64,000 bases of DNA from Chromera velia. Lineage: Eukaryota. Within the stretch, counting starts at the first letter, position 1. The number at the start of each line of letters is the position of its first letter. The DNA lies in assembly GCA_018398765.1 (NCBI GenBank), contig JAHBMJ010000101.1, forward strand, positions 62,001-126,000. Direction: 5' to 3'. Positions 1,900 to 55,493 of this stretch are shown piece by piece. The notes under the pieces are model-generated. The model worked only from the letters and a program-made list of their open reading frames with translations. It had not been told where the DNA came from and did no database searches. The translations under genes and the position numbers were made by a program.

Positions 1900-3420
1900 A
1901 CTTTCTTGTAAAATGACTTAGAAAGTCGCCAACCTAGCATTCGCTTAAATTGCTTTCTAAATTTTTACTAATTTTTCTAGTTAAATTTGCTTCTCAATTC
2001 AATGTACTGCTGATGCATACATACAAATACTCCCCCCAGATATCATGTATACATAGCATAGACACATAGTGATAAGTTTTCACAGTTGATTTGATTTGAT
2101 GTCTAGGAGTGATTTGTATACATATTTATTTTTTTTTGTCCTATCTAGTTTATTTTTTGTCTTTATTAACCTCTCTTTATTAACTCAGTGTCTACTGCTA
2201 GCTAGGCGTATCACAGAAAAAAAAGAGTAAAAAACTGTAGGTATAAAAAAGAATAATTTAATAATTATAAGATTAAGTATTTATTTCTTTTTTTTCATTT
2301 TTTTTGTGCAACACCTAAGCAATAGTTGTTTATCACCTAAGATTGTTAGCCAAAAAAAGGGTGAGAATTAGCTTTATTAATTTATATTTATTTATTCTTT
2401 TGTTGCGTGCCGCTGTATTGCGTCTCGCATGGACCTTGCGTTGGTCTCGGCATATCCGTCCTGGCTGTCCCGTTCGTGCTTATACGGGCGGGGGCCACGG
2501 CATCTATTTCCATTTGTGGAGGTGAAATGTATCCATTTATTCCTCTCTGGCCTCATAAAGCGGTCTGTTTCCTCTAGCCTGAACTGACAGTCTATGGACT
2601 CGGGTGCACCTATATTAATATTCTCTGTACGTTTATAGCAACCGCTTACTCCCTGTATACAACATCTTTTGTTATGATATAGGTTTAGATCTCTAGACTG
2701 CCAGGTCCACGGTATAGCCACAGTAACTTCAACTTAGTTTTTCAGTAGGTTTTTGACTTAAACGTATAAATTAAATACATTCTCCGGTAAACCTCCGCAA
2801 TGTCCTCATCGTACGCCATCGCTAACCATCGCGAGCATGGCCATATATTTCATAACAGATAAACGTAGGGGGAAAACCTAGTGCAAGACGAATCAATCAA
2901 TCAATCGACCCGTAAATGGGGGTCTAACGTTTGGTGTGCGACAGTGTTCTAGGGCACCAATAAATCACTTATCACTACTTATCACTGATTGGTAAGTCAT
3001 ACAACTAGACTTTCTACTAAGTTTCTAGCTAGCTTTCTAGATGTATACATATTATATTATATAACCTAGCTATAATCAAACGTACTATGTCCTAGATTAT
3101 GTCACGTATATACGATATTATCTAGGATGTAATATAAAACAATTTTCAGCTTTTCGCCTCCACAGAAGTTTTGAGTCCCCCCCTAGGTCCCCCCCCCTCT
3201 GTTCCAGACTCATGCATTCCAATACATTCCCGGAGAATTTCCCGTCCCTAGTCCCGTCCCTTAAATCCCGTCCCATAGATGCAACCTCTACCTTCAAGGC
3301 CTAGTTCAAGGCATTAATTTTAGCTTATTCTCAATTCGTGTGTGTTACTTTTCACTTGTGTCTTCTCACTGGCACATAGAATTACTTGCCGAAGAGCCAC
3401 TCAGTGGGTGAGTGAGACAG
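1900..3420. other. AT/TpA-rich intergenic block, probably decayed repeats
   Basis: Abundant CTAG/TATA/TAG words (e.g. 3001-3130), no credible ORF, small CCCGTCCC x3 repeat at 3241-3275. Confidence 0.6.
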
Positions 3421-3708
3421 TGAGTCAGTGACTAAAGTGGAAGAATGCAGCAAATTACTGTGCAGTATCCAGAGCTCCCATAGAACAAAGAAGGACAGTG
3501 TGGGTAGACATTCCACATTGCGGTTCCTTCAACGTCTTCCCTTCCTTCTTCTCTACAATCTTTCCTTCTGGCCTTTCTTTGGTTATTCCCGCTCCCGGCC
3601 CCTTCATCGATGAACGAAGGAAGAGACAGACGATCCGTTTGAGAGACAAGGATCAGGCCTTTGCTCCCGCACAGACTAAAACAAAAGAGCTGACGAAAAA
3701 AAATAAAG

Positions 3709-6471
3709 TCAGAGAAGACCGAACCATTTTGGCCTCTCCTTCATCTCAGGTACGTGTTTGTTCTTCACCAGGTCTGCCGCCGTGTCCTCCACGGTCTTTC
3801 CGAACTCTGTGTACTCGAGCCCCAGCACCTCCTTCGATCGAGAGTTGTCCAGACGGACTTGCCTGCAGTGGTGCATGGGACCGATCGACGAAAAGAGTAC
3901 GTCGCACAGGCGTTGAAGTAACAGGACACATACCCGGTAATTGCTCACCTGGAGCAAGACAAAACGCTGTCTGCCATATACTCTCTCCTCTCTTTCGACG
4001 AACTCGACAGAAACTTTCGTGATTCACACAAACACGACGGAGACTCCACTAGCTAGGCATACGCAAAAAGGCAGGAGTAGAAAATGTAGACGCGATAGTA
4101 ATGTGCTACTGAACGTACAGGCATAGACAAGTGCCACGTCGAGACGGACCGACCGACCTGTTGAGTGAGAGGAAGACGAATGTTCTCTCTGCTGCCGGCT
4201 GCGTGAAGTAGGTGACGATTTTGACAAGAGGTGAGGGGGCGACCTGAGTGGCGATCGGGTGGAATGGGTATTTCTCCTTCAGTTTCATTGCCACCTCCTT
4301 CCAAGAGTAGACACCCTCACAGATCAGAAACCTGAAGGGGAGATAGGCGTACGAGATGAATGTGCTGTTTTCAAGCAGAGGAAACAAAAGGAAAAACATA
4401 AACGAACCAATTGAAGTAATAGAGACAGTGACATCAGCAGATACTCTCGTGGTGTGAAAACTTCAAATGCAGTCCGGCACGATATGCAACACACGGCCGG
4501 GCACGCAGTCAGGCTGAGAGCGAGGAGGGCTGGCCTCAAGCAAGGAGACAAGCGGGTAGACAGACAACCGCCTCAAGCAAGGAGACAAGCGGGTAGACAG
4601 ACAGCCGCCTCAAGCAAGGAGACAAGCGGGTAGACAGACAGCCTCAAGCAAGGAGACAAGCGGGTAGACAGACAACCGCCTCAAGCAAGGAGACAAGCGG
4701 GTAGACAGACAGCCGCCTCAAGCAAGGAGACAAGCGGGTAGACAGACAGCCGCCTCAAGCAAGGAGACAAGCGGGTAGACAGACCGCCGCCCCAAGCAAG
4801 GAGACAAGCGGGTAGACAGACAGCCGCCTCAAGCAAGGAGACAAGCGGGTAGACAGACAGCCAGATAAGGAAGGAGACAAGCGGGTAGACAGACAGCCGC
4901 CTCAAACAAGGAGACAAGCGGGTAGACAGACAGCCAGATAAGCAAGGAGACAAGTGGGTAGACAGACAGCCAGATAAGGAAGGCATGTAGACAAGCACTC
5001 AGATAGGTAGGCCGGCAGGCAGACACACCGACAGAAAGACAGGAAGTGAGTCAGAAAGACACTCAGGCACGCAGCAAGGCTTGACTAAAGGCGAGCACGC
5101 AGACACAGAAAACGAGTTGCAGTGAGGCAGACGGTTTTGCTGCACGGACTCTTTTTTCTTTTTCCCTTGCGCCTCTTGCCGACATGCATCATCGTCCTCC
5201 GTTCTATTCTCTCTCGTGTCAGTCCGCGCATTCAGTCTGCTCTGTTTCTGTCTACCTCTCTCAATTCCCATCTCCTTCATTCATCCCCCCACCTCCAAAG
5301 TGATGACGCGCTGATGACGTTTCGCATATTCTTTCTATCTTTAGGCGTGTGTGTGTATGTAGATGTGCATGCATTAATGAGCGCACGGACGTGTATGTGG
5401 GAGGGGGTGGTGGTGTCAATTGGCATACGTGTAAACATGTGTTGGTACCACTTTTTGCGTTCCTCTTCTTCTCACCTGCCGGTAACGTCCTTTTCCATCG
5501 CCATCACGTGTGCAGCCGCGACATCTCGAACGTCACAGGTGCCGAGACGAATTGGGGGCAGAGCGGGGTCCTGCCCCTTCATGATGCGCCTGCATGGAGT
5601 CATGCAACGGTGCAATCAATGATGCATCAGCCGCTGCTTCCGTCTCCTGTCTTGCCGCAGACTGAACAGAAGAGCAAACGAACAAGAAAAAAAAGACACG
5701 CCGGCTGGGTGCTTTCTGCTTTCTTTTCTCCCTCTTCACCCTCCCATCCCTTTTGTTTGGTTTGTTCGAAAGAGTCCTTCCCTCCTTCCTTCACTGACTG
5801 ACGGACGTACTCGATAAAGGCAACAGATTGGTTGATGTCCCCCCTCAGAGAAGGTCCCAACACAGCGAATGGGTTGATGACTGCGAGTTCGAACGGCTTC
5901 CCTTCCCTCTCCACAAACGCGTGTGCCTCCTTTTCTGCGAGCGTCTTTGAGTAGTAGTAAGGGGACCTGGTCAGGGAGGAGCGGTCGTTCCAGTGGGACT
6001 CGTCGTAGACCGTGTCTGCATGCGCATTGCAATTTAATCAATGCCTTTACTTTCATACAGAATTCTTTTTCAGGCACGGACTCCTCGTAGACCGTGTCTG
6101 CATGCGCAGGCATTGATTGCAATTCTTTTAATCAATGCAGCAGCACCGTAATCAGTCAAAGGGCCACATTGTGACCAATCAGTAGTCAGGCAACAAAGAA
6201 ACCAAAATAGCCACACGCAGAAGAAAAGAGTCAGTTGCACTTATGATCTCTGAACGACGAACGCATACAGATGCTCCCTCCTCTCTCCCCCTCTCCCTCT
6301 CTCTCTTTCTGTCTTCCTCACAAACACAGACAACAGAAAATTCCACACAGAAGTCACCAAGGGCACAAAACTCGAGCAGGGGGGATACGAGAAAAGAAAG
6401 AAGAATCAACGTGGCTGCAGAGACATTCATACACACACACGCACGCACGCACATACACGCACACGCACGCA

Positions 6472-6541
<70 letters not shown>

Positions 6542-6619
6542 CAGAGAGAGAGAGAGAGAATGAATGGATGGATGAATGAATGAATGAGTGAATGAATGAA
6601 TGAATGAATGAATGAATGA

Positions 6620-6651
<32 letters not shown>

Positions 6652-6732
6652 AAAAAAAAAAAAAGAAAAAGAAAGAAAGAAAGAAAAGAAAGACAGAAAG
6701 AAAGAAAGAAAGAAAGAAAGAGAAGGAAGGAA

Positions 6733-6774
<42 letters not shown>

Positions 6775-8028
6775 AAAGAAAGAAAAGAAAAAAAGAAAGA
6801 AAGAAAGAAAGAAAGACAGAAAGAACGAGTGAATGAATGAATGAATGAATGAATGAATGAATGAAACAGAAAGAACGAGAGGGAGAGATGGAGAGAAAGA
6901 AAACTCAATACCTAACTGACCGTCATCGAACTCGTCGGCGATGGCAGCCACCGACGAGGTCTGAATGACTTTCTTCACGCAACCGGCCTCTTTGGCGGCC
7001 TTGAAGACGAACTTCACGCCATTCACTGCGGGGTCCACTAGGTCCTTCTGGGGATCGTTCACCTGCATGCATGCACAGGTTGGTTCTTTTTCCTTCGGTC
7101 TGCGTGCTGCTCTAGTAACTAGCTTGTCTTCGCGCGGTGTTCTGTTCGGGAAAGGCGGACACAGAGAAGTTGAAAAGGGTTCAGCACGTCGAAAAGCCTG
7201 CCGCCATCTCTCCTCACTTTCTCTTCCATTCACGGATTGTGTGAATGTGGACGTTTGCGTATGTGTGTGTTTGTATGTGGAGGGTGAACGAGCACGAGCT
7301 GTGTTCGCATGAAGCCCTTTCCGATAGACAGATAGGCAGATAGAGAGAGACTGAGTGCACGTATGCACTTTCTCAGGCTCACCTGAAGGATGTACGGAGA
7401 CGCTGTGTGCATGACGACTTCACACCCCGTGCAGGCCTCTAGCCAGCCCTCTTCACTGTTCAGATTTCCCTTCACCAACTCCAAATTCTTGTCTGCCCCC
7501 GGGAGGGACGTCAGGTGGTCCACAGACTTCGCATTCTGCACGAGAAACGAAGGAGACATAGACGGAGATGCGAACAGCCAGAGAGAGACAAAGAAGCAAA
7601 CTGAGAGAAAACTAGCTGAGAAGGCATACTTTCAAGGAGGTAGACGGGGGACCAAGATTTCCAGAGAGACACACAGGAAGCAAGACCACCACAGACACAC
7701 ATGAATGGACAGGAAGGCGGTCTGAAGGGAAGCAGTAAGGTAGTGAGCGCCTGCTTCAGAGATAAGTACAGGATTTCCAATGGGACTCGGTGGAAGGAAA
7801 GCGCTGGCTTTGACTGGAGAGAGAGCTAGTCAACTGCCTTCTCCAACCTAGAAAAAGAGAAAACTCCGTGGTAGGTAGTCAGGGTTTGGGGATAAGCGAA
7901 AATCCGTGCAAACAGACCTGAGGATCTCTAACTGTCCCTCTGACTTTGTAGCCCTTCTCCAACAGCTGCTGTACAATGTGGGCGGCAATGAAGCCCGTCG
8001 CCCCTGTCACCAACACTGTTTTCGTCAT
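3709..8028 (-). CDS. NAD(P)-dependent epimerase/dehydratase family protein (extended SDR; DFR/cinnamoyl-CoA reductase/aldehyde reductase-like), 7 exons
   Basis: Exons 8028-7918, 7535-7383, 7062-6921, 6015-5811, 5589-5476, 4331-4158 and 3862-3709 join in frame across GT-AG introns. Motifs: [15 protein letters not shown] (Rossmann fold), HTASP, TSSVAAI, catalytic YYYSK (YxxxK), [29 protein letters not shown]. Confidence 0.93.
4533..4984. repeat. Intronic minisatellite, ~37-bp unit (CCTCAAGCAAGGAGACAAGCGGGTAGACAGACAGCCG), ~12 copies
   Basis: Direct head-to-tail repeats, e.g. units starting at 4571 and 4608, degenerating toward 4980. Confidence 0.95.
6430..6900. repeat. Compound microsatellite (CA)n-(GA)n-(GAAT)n-(GAAA)n in an intron
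   Basis: Seen directly. Similar compound SSRs occur in most introns of the window. Confidence 0.95.
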
Positions 8029-8816
8029 TCTGGACTTTCGAGTTGGGGTCGGAACTGCAGCGAGCGCAGTTCAGTGGAGCCAGACAGGAAGGATACAGCA
8101 AGAGCTAGAAGGTCCGTCTCGCACCTCCAGAATATCAGACTTGAATCAATCTTATGGGTGATGTGAGGGGGCTTGAGGACAGGTGAGACCGTCTACAATT
8201 CGCAGCACCATGCAATCGATGGTGCAGATGTCAAGCACGCTGTCTTCAATGTCTGCCGTCGGTGATACGATTCGATCATTACGATTCTGAGTCAGCGCAT
8301 GCATGTGAGACTCTACTCGAATCATACTCGAATCTCGGGCACCCTGATCTGACGCACGCAAGCGTGCGAACGGCCCCGGAAAGCCCTATAGCCTATAGAA
8401 TGTACAAAGGTTTGTGTGAGACTGCATGTGAGTCCCGCGAGGACTCGCGGTGTATATTATTCATATTGTAATGTCCCTACGGGACATGCCGTGGCCCCCA
8501 GGGGTGAGATGGGGTGAGAGCACTGAGAGGTGCGTCCATGATCGTGGTACATGCATACAACAGGTTCCCCTTCCCATATTAATACATATTAATATATGGT
8601 GCATGACAAAACCCTCAATCACGGTTGTTGGCTGCGCAAAGGCGTAGCCGAGGTATCTGTAAATGCCGTAGAGGGCCGGAGACGGCTGGACGGGTTTTAA
8701 GATGGTTGAGAAGAAGAAATAAGAAGAGCTTTGCTATTAGATACGTTTGCTAATAAAAAAATTAATGACGTACAAGGACTTCGCTAACACACGGTGTTAA
8801 CGTGAATAAACGTGAA

Positions 8817-9048
8817 ACCTCCCTGAACCTAAGTGCTACTTGAAAAAATATAATCAAGATCATCTCTATTTGCGGCATCTTTTTTCAAGAGACCATCCAC
8901 GCTTGCGGCGTAGACGGTCAAGACACCATCCAGATATGCGGCTTTGGCTTTCAAGACACCATAAATAATCCGCACTTGCGGCACGGACTTTCAAGCTTAT
9001 TCAAAAATGCGGCCTGAACTATCAAGTGGTAGTTACGTTCAGGGAGGT
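8817..9048. mobile_element. MITE (non-autonomous DNA transposon) with 27-bp TIRs and an 8-10 bp TSD
   Basis: Left TIR ACCTCCCTGAACCTAAGTGCTACTTGA (8817-8843) versus reverse complement of the right end ACCTCCCTGAACGTAACTACCACTTGA (9022-9048), 23/27 identical. AAACGTGAA flanks both sides (8808-8816 and 9050-9058). Confidence 0.85.
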
Positions 9049-9589
9049 CAAACGTGAAAGAGAAAATGAAATTGTAACCGCAGCAATACATTACTGATAA
9101 ATCTTTAACAACTTATTTTTGCTTATTAAAAAAAAAAATCACAGTGCTCCCTGCTTACATCTACTTACATTTTTATTTTTTATTTATGGAGTTAATATAT
9201 AGGTCTTTTATATACAGACACACATGCTGTAATGTTTCTTTCATTTACTTTTATTTATATTTTGGTCATTCTAGTAGTAGCATAGTAGTATATGTAGTAG
9301 CCAAACATTATATACGCCTTCTATTATCAACTTGCTCTTTTAAATTATCTAGCTATAACTGAGACTGTGAGCTAGTCTATAAAATGTTTGAACACAATGT
9401 TATACAAGTCCCAAACTATGCGCTTGCTATGCTTGCTGTATTAGTTGTTGTAGTTAATTGTGCTCACTTACTCACTCACCAACACACTTAGTCACTGACT
9501 AGGTCACTGACTCACTAAGTCATTCTTGCTTTTTTCACTAATTCACTCACTCATTGTCTTACTTATTCACTCACTTACTCCCTCATTTT

Positions 9590-11060
9590 CCTTGTCTCTC
9601 TTCGATCACTCACCCACATGCCCAAAGTTAACGGCTTCCATTAACACTCTCACATCCATATGCCTAAACGGCTTTTATTCATACACTCGCTCTCTCCGTC
9701 TCTCTTTGTTTATTTCTATTTACTCACAGGCCCTAGCGGCTTAAAGTTCTATTTATACACTGAGTTTCATTCTCTCTTAGTGACAGGCTGTCTCTATTCA
9801 TTCAGGTACCCACACGCCCATGCAAATATCTTCTGCTGACATGCTTGTGCGAGTCCTTGTCCCTCTTCATTCACCCACACGCCCAACCAGCTCCTGTTCA
9901 CCTAGCCTGTTCACACCAGTTCACACACTCGCTTTCCCTATCTATGTTCATGCACCTATACCGTCGTGATGCCCCAAACGGCTTCTGTTTACACACTCGC
10001 TCTCTATGTCTCTCTTCATTATTCTTCATTGATTCATTGCATGAGGCCTAAGCGGCTTCTGTTCACATACTCGCTCTCCTTGTATCTCTTTGTCTCTCTC
10101 CATTCACCCATACGCCCAAACGGCTTCTGTCCACACACTCACTCTCCCTGTCTGAGACTCTCCTAATTTATCAGCAGGCCCAAGCGGCTTCTGTTCATAC
10201 ACTTGATATCTCTTCATTCATCCACAGGCCTAGCCATAAGCCCGAGCGGCTTTTGTTTAATGACATACAATTGATCCCTCTTCATTCATCTATGGGCCCA
10301 AACGGCTCCTGTTCCTAGCTTTTGTTCACATACTCATTCTCCTTGTCTCTCTTTCTTTGCCTGTACACCTAACCAGCTTTTGTTCACATACTCACTCTCC
10401 TTGTATCTCCTTGTCTCCTTTTATTCACCCACACGCCCAAGTGGCTTCTGTTTATACACTCACTCTCCTTGTATCTCCTTGTCTTCCTTCATTCACCCAC
10501 ATACCCAAGCGGCTTCCGTTCACACACTCGTTCTCTTTGTATCTCTTTGTCTTCCTTTATTCACCCACATGCCCAAACGGCTTCTGTTCACACGCTCGTT
10601 CTCCCTGTCTCTCTTCACTCATCCATAGGCCCAAGCGGCTTCTGTATATTTCTGTTCACACACTTGATCTCTCTTCATTCATCCACAGGCCTAACCAGTA
10701 GCCCAAGCGGCTTTTCTTCAATAACACACAATTGATCTCTCTTCATTCATCTACGAGCCTAAGCGGCTTTTGTTCACACACTCATTCTCCTTGTCTCGCC
10801 CACATGCCTAAACGGCTTCTGTTCACAAACTCATACATACTCATAAACATGCTCGTTCTCTCCGTCTCCCTTCATTCATCCACCTGCAGGCCTAAGCGGA
10901 TTCTGTTATTGCACATACTTCCTTTCTATACTCCTCTTTCTCCATGCACCCGCACGCCCAAACATTCACCCACATGCCCAAACGGCTTCTGTTCACACAC
11001 TTGCTTACCTAGCTTTATCCACAGGCCCAAACGGCTTCTGTTCACATCTCTCCCTCTTGA
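9590..11060. repeat. Degenerate tandem/satellite array built from CCCAAACGGCTTCTGTTCACAC(AC)TC...TTCATTCACCCAC units of variable length (roughly 40-65 bp)
   Basis: The core CC(C/T)AA(A/G)CGGCTT(C/T)TGTT(C/T)A recurs about twenty times. Confidence 0.85.
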
Positions 11061-11280
11061 ACTCACCAAGCGCTGGACCTATATGTGGTGAGCCTCTCCA
11101 CAACATTTCAAAGCGAATAGTACAGCATCCACAGCGATACACACTATATATAGACAGTATTTTGTGTCTCAAATCCTCAAGTGGAGGTAAAAGGAAGTCG
11201 AAAAACTAGGTGCTGAAGAACGACAAGAGGGGCCAAGTAGAGAGAAAGAAGACGAGTAAAAAGAGATTCCTGCAGATCAA

Positions 11281-12390
11281 ATTAACCGTTTTTCCTCTTT
11301 GTCCAGTATACTCAGTCGTAGTGCGGCTTACTCCTGACTCTGTAAGGCGGCATGTCTTAACTTGCCACTGAGCTTGGTAGCATAGTCAAACAACAGAACA
11401 ATTTAGAACAGCTTCACTTAGATGGTATACTTTATCGCCTTCCTTGAAAACTATATAGATGATCAAATCTATGTACAATTTCCCTCCATATGTGTTTTTG
11501 CATATGTACTGATACATCAAGGTTAGACAAAAGGTGCATGTTCGCCATATACGCGCTGTACATGCAATTGCCGGAAAATGCGGGTCCCGAAAGGCAAATA
11601 TAACCCGATTTATTGGTAATTCGACTTTTTTTTTTCCATAGGTGCGGCTAATTAATCGTTTTTCCTCTTTGTTAAGCGCACTCAGTCGTGGTGCGGCTTA
11701 CTCCTAACTCTGTAAGGCGGCATGTCTTAACTTGCCACTGAGCTTGGTAGCATAGTCAAACAACGGAGAAATTCAGAACAGCTTCACTTAGACGGTGTGC
11801 TTTATCGCCTTCCTTGAAAACTACACAGATGATCGAATCTATGTACAATTTCCCTCCATATGTGTTTTTGCATATGTACCGATACATCAAGGTTAGACAA
11901 AAGGTGTATGTTCGCCATGCACGTGCTGTACATGCAATTACCGGAAAGTGCGGGTCCCGAAAGGCAAATATAACCCGATTTATTGGTAATTCGACTTTTT
12001 TTTTTCCATAGGTGCGGCTAATTAATCGTTTTTCCTCTTTGTTAAGCGCACTCAGTCGTGGTGCGGCTTACTCCTGACTCTGTAAGGCGGCATGTCTTAA
12101 CTTGCCACTAAGCTTGGTAGCATAGTCAAACAACGGAGAAATTCAGAACAGCTTCACTTAGACGGTATGCTTTATCGCCTTCCTTGAAAACTACACAGAT
12201 GATCGAATCTACGTACAATTCCCCTCCATGTGTGTTTTTGCATATGTACCGATACATCAAGGTTAGACAAAAGGTGTATGTTCGCCATGCACGCGCTGTA
12301 CATGCAGTTGCCGGAAAGCGCGGGTCCCGAAAGGCAAATGTAACCCGATTTATTGGTAATTCGACTTTTTTTTTTCCATAGGTGCGGCTA
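11281..12390. repeat. Three tandem copies of a 370-bp unit (11281-11650, 11651-12020, 12021-12390)
   Basis: Colinear with no indels; 32 variable positions by manual alignment. Confidence 0.97.
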
Positions 12391-12400
12391 AGGGCCTTAA

Positions 12401-12427
12401 CAGATACCATGGCCGGGGGCCACGGCA
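12401..12427 (+). promoter_or_regulatory. Copy of dispersed element CAGATACCATGGCC-GGGGGCCACGGCA, ~255 bp upstream of the SF3A3 ATG
   Basis: The same 13-14-mer occurs at 2490-2503 (+), 8486-8499 (-) and 60958-60971 (-). A regulatory role is inference only. Confidence 0.4.
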
Positions 12428-12680
12428 AAGTTTTGCATGCACCACTGAAATTCGAGCTTGATCGATCATTTTCTGAGATCTTGTGAGGCCAGTCGTCCTC
12501 TCTCTCTCTCCACACACACACACACACATACTGATGCCAGCGTAATTGATTCCCTCACGTACCAGCTTCAATCACAAAACTGCGCCCATCTTTCGGCCCA
12601 ATTACACACACCACATGCTCGAGAACCTTCTTTGAGTTGAATACTTGACTTGACGGAGAAGGAAACGACAGAGAGGGAGG

Positions 12681-15132
12681 ATGTCTGGGACTGTGCTGGA
12701 GTCCTTGAGGGGCTCCCACGAGGACATCGAGTCTATCGAGAAGGCCATCGCACGAATCCTGACAGAGAGGGCAGAGAACACAAGGAAAGTCGGAAGGGTT
12801 GCGTATGACCATGCGATTGCCTACCTGCTGAAGATGGCCGTCTCCAAAGCCCAAACAGTAAGTCAGCACACGCAGAAAGGGAAAGGGGAACCGCACAAGC
12901 TTTTACACCACCCTCATGCATGCCACAAAAAGGATGGATGCGCACCTGTGTGAGCGTTCGGAAAGCATTCAATCTGTGAAGTGCCTTTTCTTTCATGACA
13001 TCGAAAAAGACTCGGAAGCAGATAGAAAAATTTTGGAATTTCCGGTTAATTTCTCAACTCTTCCTGCGTCTTCTTCCCCCCAATTTCCTCTTGAGCTATA
13101 CCCGTCTTTTATTGTCTTGCCTCCCATTCTGGTTGTCTACAGTGTCTCGACATCTACGCAGACGGGGATGGTGCGAGACGGGAGGAATTGGCGTTTTTGA
13201 TGGGGAGACGGCCGAAGGGTCCCGACAGTGTGTGGGCGAATTTCTACGACCAGCTGAAGACCGTGAGAGACTACCACAGAAAGTTCGCAGAGCAGAATGC
13301 ATTTCCAGAGACCAGAGACGCGCAGTACTTCCTCACCATGGCCTACACAGGGGGCGCATCTGCCACAGAGGACGGCCTTCTGACTGCACCCAAACTTTTG
13401 CAGGGGCCTGTGTCGAAGGCGTTCTCCCCTCAGGAGGACATGGGCAAGAGGGTGGACATGCAGGGGCTGTATAGTGTGTTTTCGAATATGAAGAAGTACA
13501 GGCAGTATCGAGAGACCCAATGGAAGCAGGCGGAGGTTGCCCGTATTCGAAAGAAGTGGAGAGAGAAGAAGCAGCAGAGGGAAGAGAAGGAGAGAGAGGA
13601 GAAGGAGAAAAAGATGTTGGAGGATGATGCTCCAATGCTAGAGGAAGAGGAGAACGATCGAAGAAACGGGGTAAACGGAACGTCCCACTCGCATGCAGAT
13701 GAAGAGGAAGAGATGGTAAGAAAGAAAAGAAGGGAAGCCCTCTGGCAGGCAGAAGAGGATGAGGAGATCGCGAAGGTGGCTTTCAGAGAGATTGACCACG
13801 TCACTTGGCTGAAGGAATTCGATCGGTCAGTCTGTTCCTCAGCTGCCTCAGAGAAATCTCTGAGCTTTTGACTTACTCTCATCTGTATGCGCTTTTTCAT
13901 TTGTTGTCTTTTACTTCGAAAGAGTGCTTTCCTCTTGAAAGTGGACGGGAGAGACCATACGACGGGGGAGCAATGAAAAGTCCGAAACAAAGGAAGAAAA
14001 AAACACTTCTTTTTGCTTGCCCCTTTTGCCATTGTTTGGGTGTTCTGCTGTCCGATTGGTTCACCCACCCGCAGAGTCGTGCTTGAAGGAAGTTCTCTGC
14101 AGAGATCCCTCCCCCTGTTTCTCTTCTCTCCCCCTTTTGTGCCAGCCAACCAACCAACCAACCAACCCTTTTTGGTGGCAGGCAGTCTTCCTGTCTTCCT
14201 GTACTCACACGCGAACTGCCCCCCCCGCTAGCTGCAGGTTCCACGAGGTGCCGCGGCACTGCAAGTACAGAGACGGGGACTACGAAGCATACGTGAGGGC
14301 CCTGGGGGAGTACTTGCAAGGATTCTTCCAGCGGCTCTTTCCTTTAGCAGACGGCAGGAAGGCAGAAGAGCAGTTGAAGGCGGATTTCGAGAAGAGGTGG
14401 GGGGAGAGAACCATCGCGGGGTGGGAACAGCTGACGAGGGAGATGCCTCTCTACTGCTTTCCCTCAGACCATCTGTTTGCGTCTGCACAGGTCCTCAAGG
14501 GACATACGGAGGTCAGGCACCCCCTCTGCCTCCCCCCCTCTGTGTGTGTGTGTGCGTGTGTGTGATGATTCGTATGCCTGTCTTCCTGTCTGTGCATGTG
14601 AAACGAGGTCTTCTCTCGTGACGCTCCCACAGCGAATTCACTTTCTTTGTCAGCTCTTGTCTTTTTTTTCTTTCTTTCTTTTTCTTTCTTCTGCATGCAA
14701 TGACGGCAGGAGAAGGACAACTGTCTGGATCCTCTGCTTACGGAGAAACAGGAGCGGGAAAGAAAGCTGGGAAGGCCAACAAATCTTTGAGCAGAAATTC
14801 CGTCTGTTGCATGTCTGACTGTCTCTTTGTATGGAGCGTAGACCGGGTCTTTTCGTGCGTTACAATCCCGTCTGAAATAGCGTGCGTCAGTGTGCGTAAC
14901 ACTTTCCGAGCTAAATCGGAGAAGCGAAGGGCCCGGAAAGCGAAAAATGAAGGCTAGTGAAGACGCGATATGACGCAGTCTGTTTTGTTTAGGTGTCCAC
15001 CAGCTTCGCTTTCCCGGGCCCGGGAAACTGCACGAACGCAATGAACTCCGCTCGCAAAATGCGCGAACCAACCAAGTGACTTGTCTGAAAGAATGAAAGA
15101 AAGAATGAATGAAAGAATGAAAGAATGAATGA

Positions 15133-15172
<40 letters not shown>

Positions 15173-16006
15173 AATTGTTTGTTGCAAGCAAGTTGCCTGC
15201 CTGCAGGGAAAGAAATTCAAGAAAAACCAGGAGTTGATGGCCGCCCGGTCGATGGGGGAGCAGGACAAGCGGAGGGAGGAGAGCCTCCAGGCAGACAAGA
15301 AGACTGCATTCTTGGAGGCAGTCGTCCAGAAGTACAAGGACTTCCTCGGAGAGACCATACAGGTTGGTAGTTTCCTTCCTTCCTTCCTTCCTTCCTTCCT
15401 TGTTTCCGTACATGCATCTGATTCCCTGCGTGTCCGAGGAGGAGTGTGTAGAGTGGGGGGGGGTTGCTGTGTCTGGAGTCTCGGGCGGGGGAGTGAAAGG
15501 GAGAGAGTCTGAGGAGGAAAGAGCGTACACGACAAAGACATATCATCGTCGGAAAGAGCGGACAGGAAAAGGACATGTCGGTTGTGCCAACAGATTGCTT
15601 AGACGTCTCCCTTAGCGTGAGAGCAGACATAGCGCACAACGAGAGGCAGTCGCAGCGGCTGTCGAAGCATGAGTGAATAACCGTGTGTGTGTGTGTGTGT
15701 GTGCGTGTGTGTGTGTGTGTGCAGGACACGGTGAACTTCATCCAGAAGAGACAGTCGATGACGCTGCAGGAGTTGGAGGCGGCGATCGAAGAAGAAGGTG
15801 AGAGGGAGTGTGTGGATGGGACAGGAAAGAGGGGAGAACGAAGGAAATGAGTTCGTTAGGGGAAACCTGGTGGAGGGAGACACCCGAGCTGAAAGGGAAG
15901 GCGATTGCGTGTCTCCATACAAATGGGTGGATGAATGAAGGACTGAAAGCATCAGTTGATACACACACACACACACACACACACTCACACACAGAGAGGG
16001 AGAGAG

Positions 16007-16041
<35 letters not shown>

Positions 16042-16868
16042 AACATATACCCGAGGTCAGTCAGGAGAGCTGTATGAGGGTAAGGTGAAAAAAGACCAAA
16101 GAGGGTGGGTGACTCCACGTCTTTCTTTTCATTTGCTTTCCTCAGTGCTGCTATGCTGCCTACCGTGCATGCATATGTTCTTGTCTTGTACTCTGCTGCT
16201 GTTTGATTTGATGGAAGAGAGACCTCATTTGTTCGCCTGCTCCTGCTCTCTTTTCTGTGTGTCTGTGTCTTTTGTTGCCTGCCTCTCAGAGGAGGGGGGA
16301 GAGGACGCGCCCGTTGAGGGGGTCGAGGGAGAAGAGGAGGAGGAGGTGGGGGACGACGATGACGACAAACCCGTTTTCAATCCTCTGAACTTACCTATCG
16401 GTCAGTTGGGTGAATGAATCGAGAGGCGAGCATTCCTTTGTTCACGCATTTCACATATCACTGCGTCTGTCCGTCTGCTCCTTTTTCCTCCTTCCCTTTC
16501 TCTCTGTCTCATTTTCCTTCTTCATTTCTTGTATCATTTTTCTGCCTGTCAGTCTGCCTGTAGGTGCAGTTCTGTCTCGCATTTGTGGAATTGCTTCCTC
16601 GCTCTCTCTCTCTCTCTTTTCTCTCTCTCCGTCGTCTCCTCAGTTGACCCCACCTCCCGCACGCTCATTCATTCATTCATTGTGCGTATGCGAAATTTCT
16701 GATTCCCTGGGACCTTTCCGCTCTGGTTTGTGCTGATCATTGATATCTGTGCATGCACAAGCTTTCGACCTAAGAGACGTACATCGATCGCTTCAGGATA
16801 GGAAAGCATTCTCTCTTCATGCACAGCCACTCTCACGATTCGAATGAGAATTTGTGTGTGTATGTTCC

Positions 16869-16901
<33 letters not shown>

Positions 16902-17793
16902 GTGACTGTCTGTCTGTCTGTCTGTCCGTCTGTCTGTCTGTGTGTCTGTCTGTCTGTCTGTGTGTCTGTTGCAGGATGGGACGGGAGGCCGATGCCGTTC
17001 TGGCTGTACAAGCTGAATGGTCTCGGTCAGGAGTTCAAATGCGAGATCTGCGGGAACTATTCTTATTGGGGGAGGAAAAATTTCGAGCGGCACTTTCAAG
17101 AGTGGAGACACGCGTACGGAATGAAGTGCATCCGCATCCCCAACACTGCACACTTCAAGGTCAGACCCAGACCAGACAGCTGAGATGAGATTCAAACAGG
17201 TGTCTGCCGCTTTTGTGCAAAAATCAAGGCTTGACTGGCTCTCTGACTGTTCCGTTGCTTTCTCCTTGCCTTTCCCCGTGATCCTCGGCGTTGCCTCCTC
17301 CGTCGTCTCCTCTGCGGAGTTTGTCCATCCATCTTTTCCTCAATCTCTTTCTCGTCACTGTGCGTTGAGTCTTGTGTTTGTTCTTTCTGGTTCGTTCTTC
17401 GTCTGTCTGTCTGTCTGTCTGTCTGCCACATTTGAGATCCCGATTGATGCCCGCATGATCTGTTCAAAGCGCAATGCCACCTTTCCTTTCCCCCTCTCCC
17501 ACCGTTTTTTAAGTCACCGCCACTCGGGGTCCGTGCGTGCGTGCGTCAGACTGAAAGAAACTAATTCCCTTAATTTCTTTCTGCATCCATTTATCGATTG
17601 ATTGATCGATGTATCGATCAACACATCTATCTGCAGGAAATAACAAAAATCGAGGACGCGATCAACCTCTACGAAAAACTCCAGAAGGAGGCAGAAAACA
17701 CGGTCAGTAGGACTGTCAGAAAGCTGGTCAGTTTGTCGACTTCTTTTTGTGCTTTTCTCTCTGTCTCTTCCTTTCTCTATCCATCTCTATCAA

Positions 17794-17890
<97 letters not shown>

Positions 17891-17932
17891 GCATGACTTC
17901 TCTTTTTTCTTTTACCATTCAAAGAGATACAC

Positions 17933-17989
<57 letters not shown>

Positions 17990-18349
17990 ATAGAAGGGTC
18001 CGTCCGTCTGCATTTTTGCTTTTTTACCTTTCATTCCAAAAGGAAAAAGGAGGGAGGGAGAAAGAACGCAATGAATGAATGAAATTCCAGCTAGAGCCTG
18101 TGTCTCTGTTGTCCGTTCTTCGCCTCTCTACTGAACTTTCCCGTCCTGGTCCTTCCCTCCCGTCCTCTCTGCTTCCTTCGTTGATGGATCCGCTGATCGA
18201 GGCACTCTCTGTGTCTCTGTCTCCTTCTCCGCTTTCTTGTCTGCCTGCAGGCGTTCCGCCCAGAGCAGGAGATCGAGTGCGAGGACTCAGACGGCAACGT
18301 CATGTCTCTCAGGGCCTTCGAAGACCTCAAGAGACAGGGCCTCATCTAG
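12681..18349 (+). CDS. SF3A3: Splicing factor 3A subunit 3 (SF3a60/Prp9), 9 exons
   Basis: Exons 12681-12857, 13143-13825, 14238-14511, 15207-15362, 15725-15797, 16290-16400, 16975-17159, 17637-17702 and 18251-18349 join in frame. Hallmarks: [70 protein letters not shown], zinc finger CEICGN...[12 protein letters not shown]-terminus ECEDSDGNV...EDLKRQGLI. Confidence 0.97.
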
Positions 18350-19255
18350 GAGGGGTGCAGCATGGGTGTTCTCGAGAATATTCTTCGATCTGATGCAATA
18401 TTCTCAATGGGATGGGATGAGCCTGGCAAGGACTCATGGGGAATTCGGGCTGGTTAGGAGGTCTCGTGCCGTCACCTAGGTTGTCACAGAAATGCGGTGG
18501 GTGGATCTGGGGGCAGCAGGCTAGGCAGCAGGGCGGCCCGTTCGTCGTCATCATTAAAGAAACTTACACGCTGCCGCGAAGCAAGTGTAATGTGCGGCAG
18601 GTGGCTAGGACTAGGCCAGGAAGTTCGAGATGACACTTTAGAACATTCCGAAGTTCCCGAGTTCCGACGTGACTAGCGACGCAGACCATAGAACAGGTAT
18701 GAGAACAGGCACACACTGAGGATGTCACTCGTTGGCTGACTATAATAAACATGATTCACAGACGTTTAATACTCTACTAAAAATACGTATTGTAAATAGA
18801 TCTTAATATCTTGTTATGATCTATATGAAGTGCAGTTTAGGATAGGATAGGATTTATGTTTCGGGTCACCCCGTGGTCCACTGCCGGGCCTCGACTGCTA
18901 AAGTATTGTATGCAGACTCATGATGATATAAATTCATATAATATCACTCAGTGCATGTCGGGCATTCGGCCAAGTATTCGGCACTGCCAGTGGGGCGGCA
19001 TAAATCCACTCCATACAGACATTAATCCTATTAAATTCTAAGTCACTCATGAAACTCCTATATTAGGCCCTAATCTACTTAAAATAATTTATGAAAAAAA
19101 TTCAAAAAAACTGTATAGATGAAAGATTTGTCAGCAGACTCGCCTGCGAGGAATTAAATAGAGGTTGTCGGTTTTCTGAAGCTGTTTCCACATGCTATAT
19201 AGGATATCAACGTTCGGAGGCCAACGTTAGGCCGATTGCCCGTGCACTACGGGGG

Positions 19256-19345
19256 NNNNNNNNNNNNNNNNNNNNNNNNNNNNNNNNNNNNNNNNNNNNN
19301 NNNNNNNNNNNNNNNNNNNNNNNNNNNNNNNNNNNNNNNNNNNNN
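19256..19345. other. Assembly gap (N run) flanked by G-runs
   Basis: N characters in the sequence. Confidence 0.99.
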
Positions 19346-19360
19346 GGGGGGGGGGGGGGG

Positions 19361-19688
19361 AGTTTCGAACGCGGAGGTAGAGTCTGTCTACGAGCACTGC
19401 CCCCTTGACATGCATAGACAGGGTAAATTGAATGATGTTGTTCACAAGTTGACAGAATATAAAGGGACGAAAATAGAAAGAGGACGCATGGATAGGCTTT
19501 TGGAGGAAGTAAGAGACGCACGCTCTGAGTCGGACTTGATCGTGTGGGCACAACAGATGGTAAAGCAACAGTTAAGACGGGCGGTGTGCAAGAACGAAAA
19601 GAAAGTAAGAGAGATTTTCATACTCCTTCTCGAGAAACACCCTGTTGCCGGCGCACGGGCAATTTCAGCTTGCCTTCGTAAACGGTAA
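19361..19688 (+). pseudogene. Possible coding fragment after the gap, ending in an HTH-like LLEKHPVAGARAISACLRKR; perhaps a transposase remnant
   Basis: ~109 open codons with protein-like, charged helical composition, truncated by the gap. The family assignment rests on motif resemblance only. Confidence 0.3.
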
Positions 19689-22105
19689 AGTCTTGATCCG
19701 ATTGCCTCTAGATAGTTGTTTCCTGTTTTTCTCCGTTTGAGTGTATGGGGTGGGTTCAGAGCTAGAATGTAACAGAGAGAGAAACGTGAAACGTGCGGGG
19801 GGGGACATGCTCGAGCTTGCGTGACGTGGGGGGGCGGGGCGCTCGTATCCGCGTGGCGTGGATACAGCTTTTTTGGGTGGTCTCTCTGTTTTTCTTTTTC
19901 TCATCTTCTTTTCATCCCTTCTTTTTTTTTTCTCTTTCTTTTTCCTGTCCGGTTTTTTGCTTATAATTTCACTGCCTCGAAAATAGACTAGGAAAATAGA
20001 TCGTGCCCTACAGAGTTGACCTTTAAATTGGTCTTACCGAAGGACAGGAGAGACTGATAGGACTACTGTAGGTACCGTACTCCAGTCAGTCTAGTCAGCC
20101 CCAGGGAAGTGAAGTCACTGTGCCTGCGTCTTGTCTGATTCTCGTTTGATCTTGTATGTATTCTTTCTTCGCTGCTGACTGTCTACTATGCTCAGCAGCC
20201 GAGCCCTTCCTCAGGAGTCGGTATCCAGGGAAGTGTTCCGTAGGGTTCCTACCCTGTTGACTGCACTCCTTATCATTTCTCAGGCTAACATGGACACGTT
20301 CTTTTACTTCTCTTTTTCGGTCTCCCTTTCTGGCTCTGTCTTCCCTCTCGGTCGTTCCCCCTGCCACTGCAAGTTTGTTCCGATGCCGGTAGTTTTTAAT
20401 CCTGGTTGCTTGAGGGTAGAACTACCCTCTGTTTCTATTTCCATTTCCGCCCTAGCTAGGCTTTGGTCCATACAAATGCCCCAGTGGGGCCTAGGTCGAG
20501 GGATCGAACTTATGCAGGAAATACTAGGTTGGCCTGAGCCTATATGGCTCACCGGCTTTAACCTCATACATCATCATCATCATCAAACAGGTCTTTGTTA
20601 CAAAATCTTGCGAGTGGCCGCTGAGTGAGTCAGAGTGACTCGGCGAGTGAGTTACGTGCATGTGCCTGGCTTCTGCAGAACGTGATGAAAGCCAGCGCAT
20701 TGAAATTTCAAAGCCAGCTTCAAGGTATACTTCAAGGCGGCGTTCTCCTTTTTTCCACAAGTTTTCACAGGATTAACAGCACAAACCCGAGGAGCACGCT
20801 GACGAGAAGTATGCGAAGAACTGAAGCAACATGAAAACGGTGTGCATGTGTGTGCATCTGTCCTAGTTTCTGTCGAGGCTCGCCTGCTTGCTCTCTCTCT
20901 GTCTGTCTCTCTCTCTCTCACACACACAGTATTTTTCTTTCGCTTGCAGTCTCTCAGAGCATCACACTTCATGAGATGCATTCGCCCTCGATTTTTAAAA
21001 CTACACCAACCTCTTTCCCGACTCCTAAGAATCCTCACGGAGTGGGTCACCCCCCTCCGTCAGCCAATCCGTCAGGCATGCAGTCACTCAGACAGTCAGC
21101 AAACCCGTTGTTCTCTGTCAGCAAGTCTGTAACGCAGGCAGTCAGTCGGTCGATAAACTGATCCACGAAAAAAAAAAGAATGACAAAGGAGTTTCGTTTC
21201 TGTACTCATCTCTGTTTTACGTACAGTATGTACCGAGACGGAACAAGTGAGGTGATCGAGGGTGCAAGGCCGCACCACCATGCAGTTGTTGCCTACGGGT
21301 CAACGGCGGCACTGCGGAATAAAGCAAGGGAAAAAAGTTTCTCCGTCACACGTACGCACAGATAGACAGACACACACGTACACACACACACAAACACACA
21401 CATACACACACACTCACACACACAAACTGACGGACGGACTCGGATTGCGAGATGATTCAACACCCCAAAAAAAGAGTTTAGTGGAATCTGACACATGACA
21501 AATCGAGAAAAACAACGACAGAAGTTGGCAATGTATCGATCGACAAATAAATAAATAAGTACAGACAACAAAACAAACAAACAAAACAAAAATGGGTGAG
21601 TTTGAAAGAACACGTCCAAATGAACGCACAGAGTGACCAACTGATCGGATTATTACAGGCCACGTCGCGAAGGAGCTTGCCGGTTTCTTTACACAAAAAA
21701 ACCGGCCGACAATTAAGCCTGCCTGCCAGTCGCAACGACGTCCTGTCACCTGATTCAATCCCCCTTCTTCGTTTCCCTCCCTCCTTCTCTCTGCTTTTCT
21801 TTTGCACCGCTGTCCCCCCCAAGGTCCTCAAAAAATTGTTTCGCTCTTTCGGACAGAATTTCTTTCAAGATGTACAGCCGATCTTCGCCGTAACAAAATC
21901 GCCTGTCCGTTTCTTTGCTCGGTCTTCTTTTTCCTCCTCCCTGAATGCCCGTTGTTTCCTTTCTTTTCCGTTTCACCCACGGTCAATTCCCTCCACACAA
22001 ACAGACAGGCAGACTCTGCCCTCCCCGACAAATGCATTCAATCCATCCATCCATCCATCCCGCAGAGAACAGACCTCCCTTGCTTCTTCCCCTCGGGGCA
22101 CTCAG

Positions 22106-22385: not shown

Positions 22386-25300
22386 TCAAATACACACAGC
22401 TGTCTCGCTCGACCCTGCTTTCTCACTTCCAAAAGCCTTCTCCCCCTCTTCCTTGGTTGCTTGCCTGAGACTAGAGACAACGACAGAAGAAGGGGGGATC
22501 GGAATCCGCCTTGGGGGGGGGCACGTGGGTAGAAGTGGATCCGGATTCAGCTCTCCGCTCATGGACCCACCACTACGCACATCCTTGTCAGAAGGAACAA
22601 CTGAGTCTTCCCTTGTTGGTTCTTCAACTTTCTCTGAGGACTCTAGAGGTCCTCCACCAACAGATGGGGGCGACTCGGGGGAGACAGGCACCGGCCTGGT
22701 GGCCCAGGGACAGCGGGAGGGCGGGGCAGAAGTCGGCAGACAGCTGGTTCCTGTGCCGCCAACTGGCACATGCAGGGACCCATTCGGGTTCCTCTTCACT
22801 GGTGCTGCTGAAGTGTTCGTCCTCTTTCTGTTGGGAACTTGCGGAGGCGGTCTCTGAGGGGGAAGGGCAGATGGGGGCAGGGGATTGACAGGCGCAAGCC
22901 CGTAGAAATTCAGGGTGACGCACGCAGGATCATCCTCATCGATGACCGCCACGACGCTGGCCAGAACACCCGGAGAGTGGGCAAGACTATCGGCAAGAGG
23001 GCCCACCTGCGATTGGTGTGACAAGGAGCCACCGCGTGTTCTTATGGTACTGTCTGTACGGACGCTCTGAGCACGGGGAGAGGGACACGAGGGCTGCTGA
23101 GGTGTTTCACCGACTTCCAGCTGTGCCGGTGGGATGGGAGAGGCAGAGGGGGCAGAAGGGGCGCGTTGTCCGGAAGGCTTGGAGATGCCAAGCAGTTTGT
23201 GATGAGAGTGTCCCCCCCATTCAATGCGCAGAAGGACGCGTGAGGGAAACCACACGACCGACCGGTTGGCCGAAAAGACTGCAGACCTGAGGTCTTCTGT
23301 GTCCTTTGTGCGTAGGACACAATTGAGATAGGTGCCGTCGAGGATCCTGCCTGTCCAGAGTCGGAACAGAAGGGAGGCCTCGAGGATGACCATCTCTTGG
23401 AGGTTTGCACGGATGGACCCCTGCACGCAACATTCATTGTTTGTACGCACACATGCAGCGCTTTGATTGATGGATGCGGGATCTAGAGCAAGGCTGGAGA
23501 GAACAAGAAACTCTAGAATCACAGAGATAGATAGATAGAGAGAGAGAGAGCACAGAAAACAGGAAAGGAAAGGAAAGTGCAGAAGTAAGAGATGAAACAC
23601 ATAAAAGAAACTCCCCCCCGCTCAACATCATACTGCTCCGCCGGATGGACGGAGAGAGGAGAGACGTGCCTGAAAGACTGCGTCCAGAGTTTGCTGAGAC
23701 CTCGTAAGTAGCCACTCAGTACGTCTGCGCACGTTTTCTTCCTCTGTCACGTCCCTTAGAAAGCCTAAGACCGATGCGACGGCAGGAGCATGTACAGAGG
23801 GGCAGACACTGCCTGTACCTGTGCCTGTGTCTGGGCTTGTAGGGCTGTCCTTCACGCCCGTACACTTTGAGGGCGGATTTTCCCTCGCCGGTTCTCTCTC
23901 TCTCTCTATTTCTTCACAGCCACCCGGACGCTCCGAGGCACCGCAGGGAAGTTGGGGAGGTAGCGCTTCTGTTTGTCCTTCACCCTTCTTAGGCTGTCCC
24001 TGCTGATCTGTGTGCACTGAACGAACCACTCGCTTCCCTCCGCACTCAAACCTGAAGGCAGGGGGACAGGCGGGCATCATGCAGAAAGGGTGCAAGTGCT
24101 TTGAGTGTAAAGAGAAGAGAAGAGAAAAAACACATGAGAAGAAATGCTGGAGACAGCACAGAGGCAAATACTTCAAATTAAAGCAACTCACAAGCCTTCT
24201 TCAGGTTGCCAGGCGAAAGAAAATCATACCAACAAAGAAACCGACCATCTCAGCTGTCCATCCGGTCTCTCAATCATCAGCTGGAGGTCGAAAGGCTTGC
24301 CTGTCCTCAGACAGTTCTGAATAGCCAGCTCCACCTGCTCTTTGTAGGGAGGGGCAACGAATTCTGTCCAAAGGGCGTTGACAGCCGGGCTGTTGGAAGG
24401 GGGGCAGAAATGCTCCATGGTGGTGGGGGGGGGCATATGGGGCGGAGGGGCGGGTACTCCCAGAGAGGGACACTGGTCATCTGCCTGCGGCGACTCCAGT
24501 GTGGGGGGGAGAGTTTTGTTGTGTTGGGGTCTCCAGGGTCCTGAAGGGGGGGGATGGAATGCGAGTGGAGGGGGACGAATCATGTCGCCTCCTCCTGGTG
24601 CAGCGGCGAGGGACCTGTTTTCTTGCTCCTTCTCCTCTTTTCTTCCTGACTTCTCAATCTTGTTGTCTTCACCAACCGCAAGATCAGAACCGCACCTCTC
24701 CCCCTTCCCTCGCCCCCCCTCTTGTTCACCTCCTTTCCTGTTCACAGCTTCTCCCTCCCTCTCCCGCTCATTCTCGCCCTCGCTCTCGCTCTCCATAACA
24801 GACCAGAGGCGTGGAGCGACGCGCCATCTGCTTGTTTGAGGGGAAGGCGAAGTTTTCCATTTTGACAGACTCAGAGCACCGGCCGCAGCCGCACCACCAG
24901 GAGTCCCCTTCACACTTACTAACCCCGACTCATCTCCCCTGCTTGCCCCCACACTGTGATCTGTTTGCGACTGTCCATTCCTCATGTCCACCCCCCTTTT
25001 TTGGCTTTGGCTTTGTGCCTGCGAGACAAAATTGGGGTCCAAAGGAAGAAGCCCTTGCCCCCCGACACCCCCCACACCCCTAGATGCAGCTTCACTGAAA
25101 TCCAACGGATGATCCCCCCCCAGCAGTCTGTCTCTGTCTAGGGTTCCTGCTGCGTGGTTTTGGTTTGAGGAGTCAAAAATCTGTGCAGAGATAGGACCAG
25201 GCACAGCTAACGACTCTTCACGGAGGGGGGAGGGAGAACCGAAAGTTACCAGCTTGCGGCCTGTGAGTGCTTCGATGACCTTCGACTGATACACAGCGCG

Positions 25301-26156: not shown

Positions 26157-26188
<32 letters not shown>

Positions 26189-55440: not shown

Positions 55441-55493
55441 CTGTTTTACACAGCTTCCATGAGCGCCCACTCCTACTCCTGATGCCAAAACGG

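Follow-up and report, generated by a model that had tools for sequence, protein, structure and literature searches.

In Neurospora, repeat-induced point mutation (RIP) acts at CpA on linked duplicates over ~400 bp (PMC3318451), and in the Dim2-dependent mitotic mutator of Zymoseptoria tritici more than 95% of mutations are C>T and more than 98% of those fall at CA, with CG spared (PMC8016269). The DNMT4/RID methyltransferases are described as restricted to fungi (PMC12344493). Among alveolates, CH methylation in Symbiodinium is aimed at transposons (PMC5890265), and a Tetrahymena paper, in the portion available, uses RIP only for comparison (PMC1557398).

Chromera velia is a coral-associated alga and a free-living relative of the apicomplexans. 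It is rich in transposons, with about 30 Mb compared with 1.5 Mb in Vitrella (PMC4501334), yet no DNA-type methyltransferase is listed for it in the available part of a published survey, where the four enzymes in Table S1 are all DNMT2-class, with none in DNMT1/3/4/5/6 or the orphan group (PMC12344493). Chromera Helitrons have been annotated at just 127,131 bp (PMC4501334).

Here, we describe a C>T-rich tandem array in a 64-kb window (the whole stretch of 64,000 nucleotides that was analyzed). The C>T observation is confirmed and extends to the whole repeat family to which the array belongs; the RIP label that had been attached to it is unsupported. It is plausible that an alveolate in which no DNA methyltransferase has been recognized has a C>T process biased toward repeats. 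Among the matches listed in the open-access literature on RIP-like processes, on Chromera DNA methyltransferases and on Chromera Helitrons, there was no report of this C>T pattern, of this element family or of a RIP analogue in alveolates.

The tandem array and its host element

The array makes up an internal tandem stretch of a ~4-kb element (8465–12427) and sits between an epimerase-like gene, whose transcription points away from the element, and the divergent SF3A3 gene. Features of the locus, in window coordinates, are as follows.

5627–8028 (approximate), minus strand: NAD-dependent epimerase/dehydratase-like gene, seen as ORF pieces with a weak Pfam match (PF01370, E=6e-4) in one exon.
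8465–12427, minus strand: many-copy non-coding element of ~3.96 kb, likely a non-autonomous Helentron (HINE/DINE-1-like).
8471–8487, minus strand: predicted 3′ stem-loop with a 7-bp stem (−5.6 kcal/mol); the family ends 6–7 bases beyond it.
8487–8499, plus strand: 13-bp subterminal inverted repeat near the predicted 3′ end, pairing with 12415–12427.
8816–9049, no strand assigned: nested MITE-like insertion of 234 bp that carries terminal inverted repeats and is flanked by an 8-bp target-site duplication (8808–8815 and 9050–9057).
9860–11046, plus strand: degenerate ~68-bp central tandem repeats with 65–89% identity between blocks; the repeat number varies across copies.
11280–11649, plus strand: 370-bp copy 1, the most decayed, which departs from the family-majority unit at 26 positions, 23 by C:G>T:A change.
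11650–12019, plus strand: 370-bp copy 2, likely recombinant, with 11 differences from the family-majority unit, 10 of them C:G>T:A.
12020–12389, plus strand: 370-bp copy 3, near the family majority, with 4 differences, 3 of them C:G>T:A.
12406–12426, minus strand: predicted 5′ hairpin made by the inverted repeat and a partial repeat beside it, with a 9-bp stem (−7.2 kcal/mol, DNA parameters).
12415–12427, minus strand: 13-bp inverted repeat at the predicted 5′ end, the exact reverse complement of 8487–8499 (13/13).
12681–18346, plus strand: SF3A3/Prp9 splicing factor gene, the flanking host gene and single-copy control (Pfam PF11931 and PF12108; exons by tblastn).

An exon of the SF3A3 gene just downstream matches a Chromera velia protein with 100% identity across 88% of the query. 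The host contig is therefore that of a chromerid alveolate and not of a fungus, and the preliminary description of this DNA, made from the sequence alone, was right to call the host apparently non-fungal and alveolate-like. That description dealt with the tandem array alone, and the array proves to be embedded in a many-copy, mobile-type element. Copy abundance was assessed with public sequencing-run contig sets from separate studies, which are independent of the assembly (X1 and X2; the others are X4, X6 and X11). Summed contig depth on the 370-bp unit was ~5,900–16,500 in X1 versus 30 on a single-copy gene and 2,600–7,200 in X2 versus 15.6, and it reached about 5,000–50,000 over the element in X1 versus 30 on the single-copy flank; these depths are not copy numbers. 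Contigs placed on copy 3 and its flank numbered 441 (X1) and 299 (X2), and the region from ~8350 to 11720 is likewise many-copy, with 5,518 X1 and 4,786 X2 contigs. The repeat edge at 12427 is marked by 15 X1 contigs that continue into unrelated flanks, and other family copies begin at 8464/8465. Contigs from X4 and X6 also fall on the element, but the RNA nature of these two sets is a guess, and they were hence not taken as expression. A degenerate 24-mer from the 370-bp unit had 0 matches in metagenome contigs.

DINE-1/HINE elements are recognized by inverted repeats, a 5′ partial-repeat hairpin, a 3′ stem-loop, central tandem repeats and a lack of coding capacity (PMC4067079). The 13-bp pair falls within the 12–15 bp used as the HINE criterion for (sub)terminal inverted repeats, and the longest ATG ORF within the element is 95 aa. 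No target-site duplication was found for the element, its two flanks having no direct repeat in common, and no empty site for it was seen among the run contigs. A T run adjoins the 5′ end of the element here, but 15 ends of other family members at 12427 run into unrelated flanks, with an agreement of 0.39. Judged from its ends, tandem repeats and lack of ORFs above 95 aa, the element is likely to be a non-autonomous Helentron (HINE/DINE-1-like), which would move by rolling circle. A cut-and-paste reading of the 13-bp repeats was rejected because there is no target-site duplication and family copies reach 22 bases past one of the repeats. The nested MITE-like insertion has loose contig ends at 8816/8817 and 9049/9050 with raised depth, and its empty site is present in four X1 contigs in which the joint 8807>9050 skips 242 bases.

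The 13-bp end motif recurs exactly at 60959–60971 (plus strand) and 2490–2502 (reverse). At 60959, the upstream flank is similarly hairpin-like, and a 14-base match to the 5′ end of the element lies further in. The extra motifs are likely to be ends of related elements.

Several other observations were made in the window. Just upstream of the epimerase-like gene, a short segment (8347–8384) is present in many copies and has loose ends on both sides in many contigs; a stretch at 33393–33423 resembles it, and this may be either a common promoter motif or a small repeat. Two long ORFs of 588 and 620 aa at 24224–28389 (minus strand), one with a weak PAS_3 match and the other membrane-like without a Pfam family, are probably a single large signalling gene. 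A long single-exon leucine-rich-repeat (LRR) ORF occupies 55494–57707 (minus strand), and N gaps at 19256–19345 and 37149–37236 are each bordered by G runs. An intergenic 37-bp minisatellite (4533–4971; 12 copies, 92% matches) has too few substitutions to score. An Rfam scan of the 64-kb window returned 0 matches.

Tandem Repeats Finder reported the array as period 370 at 11280–12391, with 3.0 copies, 95% matches and 0 indels, and a column-wise comparison of the copies gave 32 variable sites comprising 30 transitions and 2 transversions; the period, the copy number, the lack of indels and the site counts are as first described. The earlier split of contexts (15/9/6 for CpA/CpG/other) was reproduced to within one site, at 16/9/5, when we recounted with an all-C/G ancestor. 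Copies 1 and 2 differ at 25 sites, 1 and 3 at 28, and 2 and 3 at 11, and the C>T load of adjacent copies 1, 2 and 3 is 23, 10 and 3 (23 versus 3, p=9e-5). Left of unit position 190, copy 2 matches copy 1 at 1/17 informative sites, and right of it at 6/11 (p=0.007, with the breakpoint picked after looking at the data); derived alleles of copy 1 are also found in copy 2 at 0/16 sites up to unit position 186 and at 6/10 from 193. Copy 2 is therefore likely to be a recombinant that is like copy 3 on the left and copy 1 on the right, and the simplest reading would be an old resident unit (copy 1), a younger unit (copy 3) and a crossover product (copy 2). Given such a history, most of the differences within the array would not have arisen after a local duplication. 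The incompatible allele sharing among copies had been ascribed to recurrent hits or gene conversion; recurrent hits were rejected as the main cause, since one breakpoint in copy 2 accounts for most of it, with a few shared sites left over beside it (unit positions 148 and 258). An assembly that mixed copies could produce the same pattern. The tandem junctions were unbridged by run contigs, with no joint on copy 3 and its flank and none among the 15 of 77 joints listed, so the exact three-copy layout depends on the assembly.

Direction, strand and context of the changes

Polarity was set by the family majority, which was taken from summed contig depth and not from allele counts; at unit positions 7 and 24 it is indirect. 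With this polarity, 28 of the 32 array sites are C:G>T:A changes, two are T>C and two are transversions. Variant places in X1 relative to copy 3 were C>T at 26, G>A at 23, A>G at 4, T>C at 3 and transversions at 10, and three of the seven A>G and T>C places are C>T changes of copy 3 itself. Across 8300–11720, the two main contig sets gave similar spectra: 283 C>T, 181 G>A, 128 T>C, 67 A>G and 84 transversions in X1, and 270, 177, 130, 63 and 89, respectively, in X2. Among the best 40 of 913 rows, the window departs from the family majority in 38 (31 C:G>T:A, 3 T>C and 4 transversions), the other two having been dropped as minor family variants. The two strands were hit at equal rates, with 0.315 changes for each C and 0.323 for each G (p=0.77). 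In a marine sediment metagenome (X11), 14 low-depth contigs lie on 12020–12415, and 19 of their 24 variant places are C>T or G>A. The nested MITE has three C>T changes in the five rows listed, 0 of them at CpA.

The directional, CpA-enriched C:G>T:A change of the preliminary description thus holds in both the array and the best 40 of 913 rows. Its confinement to duplicated DNA has to be amended, as the same change occurs throughout the non-tandem body of the element and its family. Read or assembly error, which had been named as a possible refutation, does not account for the differences at the family level, where the C>T spectrum is present in independent run contigs.

In the array, with majority polarity, changes were found at 15/53 CpA, 9/42 CpG, 3/41 CpT and 1/33 CpC sites. 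Both CpA (p=0.0007) and CpG (p=0.013) exceeded CpC and CpT combined (4/74), and CpA did not differ from CpG (p=0.48); the preference therefore covers CpA and CpG, and the CpA preference originally proposed stands relative to CpC and CpT but not as a preference for CpA alone. By methylation class, the array counts were CG 9/42, CHG 5/29 and CHH 14/98. Family variants on the unit (best 40 of 80 rows), which overlap the array sites and so are not independent of the array counts, were distributed as CpA 17/58, CpG 12/44, CpT 5/42 and CpC 3/44, again with no difference between CpA and CpG (p=1.0). Element-wide, the best 40 of 913 rows gave CpA 16/464, CpT 8/448, CpG 4/200 and CpC 3/282, with CpA above CpC and CpT combined (p=0.044), no significant excess of CpG over them (p=0.54) and 11/31 of the C:G>T:A changes outside CpA and CpG. 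CpA is thus favored two- to sevenfold over CpC and CpT, yet makes up only about half of all C>T changes. It is the 3′ base that defines the mutation context, the 5′ base having weak effects, and the order of contexts is CpA ~ CpG > CpT > CpC. De novo non-CG methylation usually gives the order CA > CT > CC.

Repeats, genic DNA and candidate mechanisms

On the single-copy SF3A3 flank, X1 and X2 had 0 differences from the window in a comparison of about 1,960 bases. Microsatellites throughout the window provided a small set of single-base interruptions (n=32), for which the perfect repeat is assumed to be ancestral; of these, 10 were C>T, 10 T>C and 12 transversions, which differs from the 31/38 seen in the best 40 of 913 rows (p=3e-5, or p=1e-4 after subtraction of five probable slippage duplicates). 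SF3A3 introns and the block 33500–53800 both have a TpA:CpA ratio of 0.29; it is 0.20–0.32 at codon third positions of four ORFs, 0.96 in the element and 2.0–2.1 in two intergenic patches, and its borders are sharp. In the other three contexts (before C, G or T), the T:C ratio is 1.0–2.05 across introns, element and patches. By the microsatellite and TpA:CpA controls, which are indirect, the C>T process is apparently stronger in repeats than in genes, in keeping with the repeat association originally noted, and it may be specific to the repeat compartment. Most of the TpA contrast, however, comes from the scarcity of TpA in genes, for which there could be a separate cause.

Genic DNA across the window has very strong TpA avoidance in introns and at codon third positions (o/e about 0.3). 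AT-richer intergenic patches at 1900–3400, 18500–21000 and 53900–55450 have TpA:CpA of 0.9–2.1, compared with about 0.3 in genes; from their composition, these patches are likely to be decayed transposons.

What needs to be explained is a many-copy family with directional, strand-symmetric change and a different pattern in genic DNA. We give an even chance to slow C>T decay of transposon DNA methylated at CG and CA, the writer enzyme being unrecognized in Chromera. Of the two options in the preliminary description, it is thus the second, non-CpG methylation and subsequent deamination, that we would prefer. Cytosines of transposon DNA would be methylated in these two contexts by that enzyme, methylated C would be deaminated to T on both strands, either spontaneously or by an enzyme, and C>T changes would accumulate with copy age. 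Copy 1 and the element body would have been resident for longer, with copy 3 as a younger unit and copy 2 as the outcome of a crossover. Strand-symmetric C>T in both CG and CH contexts, which is the pattern expected of methylation-linked decay, was found. Counting against this reading, no DNA-type DNMT is listed for Chromera in the available survey table (PMC12344493), CpG is not significantly raised element-wide among the best 40 of 913 rows, where 11/31 changes fall in other contexts than CpA and CpG, the C>T changes listed for the nested MITE include none at CpA, and the microsatellite control is small. The same table lists no DNMT for Vitrella (PMC12344493), whereas Vitrella CEM15752 is annotated as DNMT4 and groups with diatom enzymes (PMC10538959); given this conflict, the survey table may miss enzymes, and an overlooked Chromera enzyme is possible. 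Chromera is not named in the available text and supplements of PMC9998398 or in the available text of PMC12695648, and no Chromera methylome was found among the matches listed in the open-access literature.

A modest chance attaches to a genome-wide C>T bias that is elevated at CpA and CpG but involves no targeting, while GC-biased gene conversion or selection keeps genes rich in GC and poor in TpA. In many genomes without methylation, C>T is the most frequent mutation. Changes occur here in all four contexts, the TpA:CpA of the element is near the values for its other contexts (1.2–2.05), which leaves genes as the outlier, and no DNA-type DNMT is listed for Chromera (PMC12344493, available table). 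However, the microsatellite interruptions have no C>T excess, and introns (49% GC) have a CpA o/e of 1.12 and a TpA o/e of 0.31, opposite to the outcome of a CpA>TpA bias, so that any opposing force would need to act specifically on the base that precedes A.

It is doubtful that Chromera velia has a dedicated C>T mutator aimed at transposons, that is, a weak RIP-like defense in which an enzyme related to DNMT4/RID, or a diverged one of the DNMT2 class, acts on CA and CG and has divided the genome into genes poor in TpA and transposon graveyards rich in it. A weak RIP-like mutator in which a RID/DNMT4-related enzyme recognizes duplicated or transposon DNA and hits it in bursts is unlikely. The directional C:G>T:A change in repeated DNA that RIP would leave is present and strand-symmetric, CpA is the largest class (15/28 in the array and 16/31 in the element, best 40 of 913 rows), TpA:CpA borders between genes and intergenic patches are sharp, and the uneven copy load could reflect bursts. 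The Vitrella enzyme grouping with diatom DNMT4 (PMC10538959) would also fit, as would the LRR gene, the one gene put through a paralog test, which has no close paralog (7,996 candidates scored; self 100%, one paralog 35%).

Against such a mutator, CpA is not the dominant target and is equaled by CpG per array site, compared with more than 98% CA for the Zymoseptoria mutator (PMC8016269), and the linked tandem copies were not mutated together. RIPper thresholds are a product index of at least 1.1 and a substrate index of at most 0.75 (PMC6714961); the three copies have product indices of 0.96–1.00 and substrate indices of 1.04–1.14, which are not RIP-like. In a sliding-window check of the kind that had been proposed for the RIP hypothesis, 0/127 standard windows passed both thresholds, with a composite index above 0 in 10/127, and the element retains a CpA o/e of 1.18. 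Since 2,148 of the 5,518 X1 contigs are at least 95% alike, close copies persist, which RIP would not predict, and DNMT4/RID is described as fungal only in the available survey text (PMC12344493). RIP in its classical sense therefore lacks support as a reading of the array, failing on CpA dominance, on the indices, on the loads of adjacent copies and on the lack of DNMT4/RID for Chromera in that survey.

A cytidine deaminase acting on single-stranded rolling-circle intermediates of the element is highly unlikely. The element ends fit the rolling-circle type and no methyltransferase would be necessary, but there is no strand bias, the context comes from the 3′ base rather than the 5′ base, and the nested MITE-like element, which is of another type, also carries C>T changes (three of the five rows listed). 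It is very improbable that the copies differ only because short reads of a many-copy repeat were assembled into mosaic or collapsed copies: unbridged tandem junctions among the joints listed, the near-majority copy 3, the mosaic copy 2 and some window alleles missing from X1/X2 contigs are compatible with it, but the C>T spectrum recurs in independent run contigs, including the sediment metagenome X11 (19/24), so an artifact could change the copy layout and not the family spectrum.

If the repeat-biased C>T signature at CA and CG is true, a cytosine-modifying system would have been overlooked in the chromerid lineage, and if a dedicated mutator is responsible, it would be a RIP analogue outside fungi. 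Under a plain mutation bias, the finding shrinks to a previously unclassified Helentron-like family.

Comparison with known systems

The element is like DINE-1/HINE elements in its 13-bp inverted repeats, 5′ partial-repeat hairpin and 3′ stem-loop and in its central tandem repeats, absence of coding capacity and absence of a target-site duplication (PMC4067079, available text). Insertion into a TT or T-rich target, another trait of that group, is not evident across the family ends (PMC4067079).

C>T decay in Chromera is much weaker than the fungal RIP defense. As in Neurospora, the change is directional C:G>T:A in repeats, with CpA above CpC and CpT, and TpA is higher in repeat compartments (PMC3318451, PMC6714961). 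Unlike in Neurospora, there is no CpA dominance, CpA depletion or positive RIP index (PMC3318451, PMC6714961), near-identical copies are abundant and tandem copies are unequally hit (PMC3318451), and the host is non-fungal with no RID listed for Chromera in the available survey (PMC3318451, PMC12344493).

The Zymoseptoria tritici mutator also produces C>T in transposon DNA on both strands with CA as a main target, and it is methylation-linked rather than classical RIP, as we propose for Chromera (PMC8016269). In Chromera, however, ~82% of changes are C>T, about half of them at CA, and CG is hit alike per array site (PMC8016269 for comparison), and no Dim2/DNMT1 is listed for Chromera in the parts of the sources available (PMC8016269, PMC12344493).

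Symbiodinium has genome-wide CG methylation and many DNMTs, whereas only DNMT2-class enzymes are listed for Chromera in the available table (PMC5890265, PMC12344493). It is likewise an alveolate, and non-CG methylation of transposons such as that found there would give C>T in all contexts (PMC5890265).
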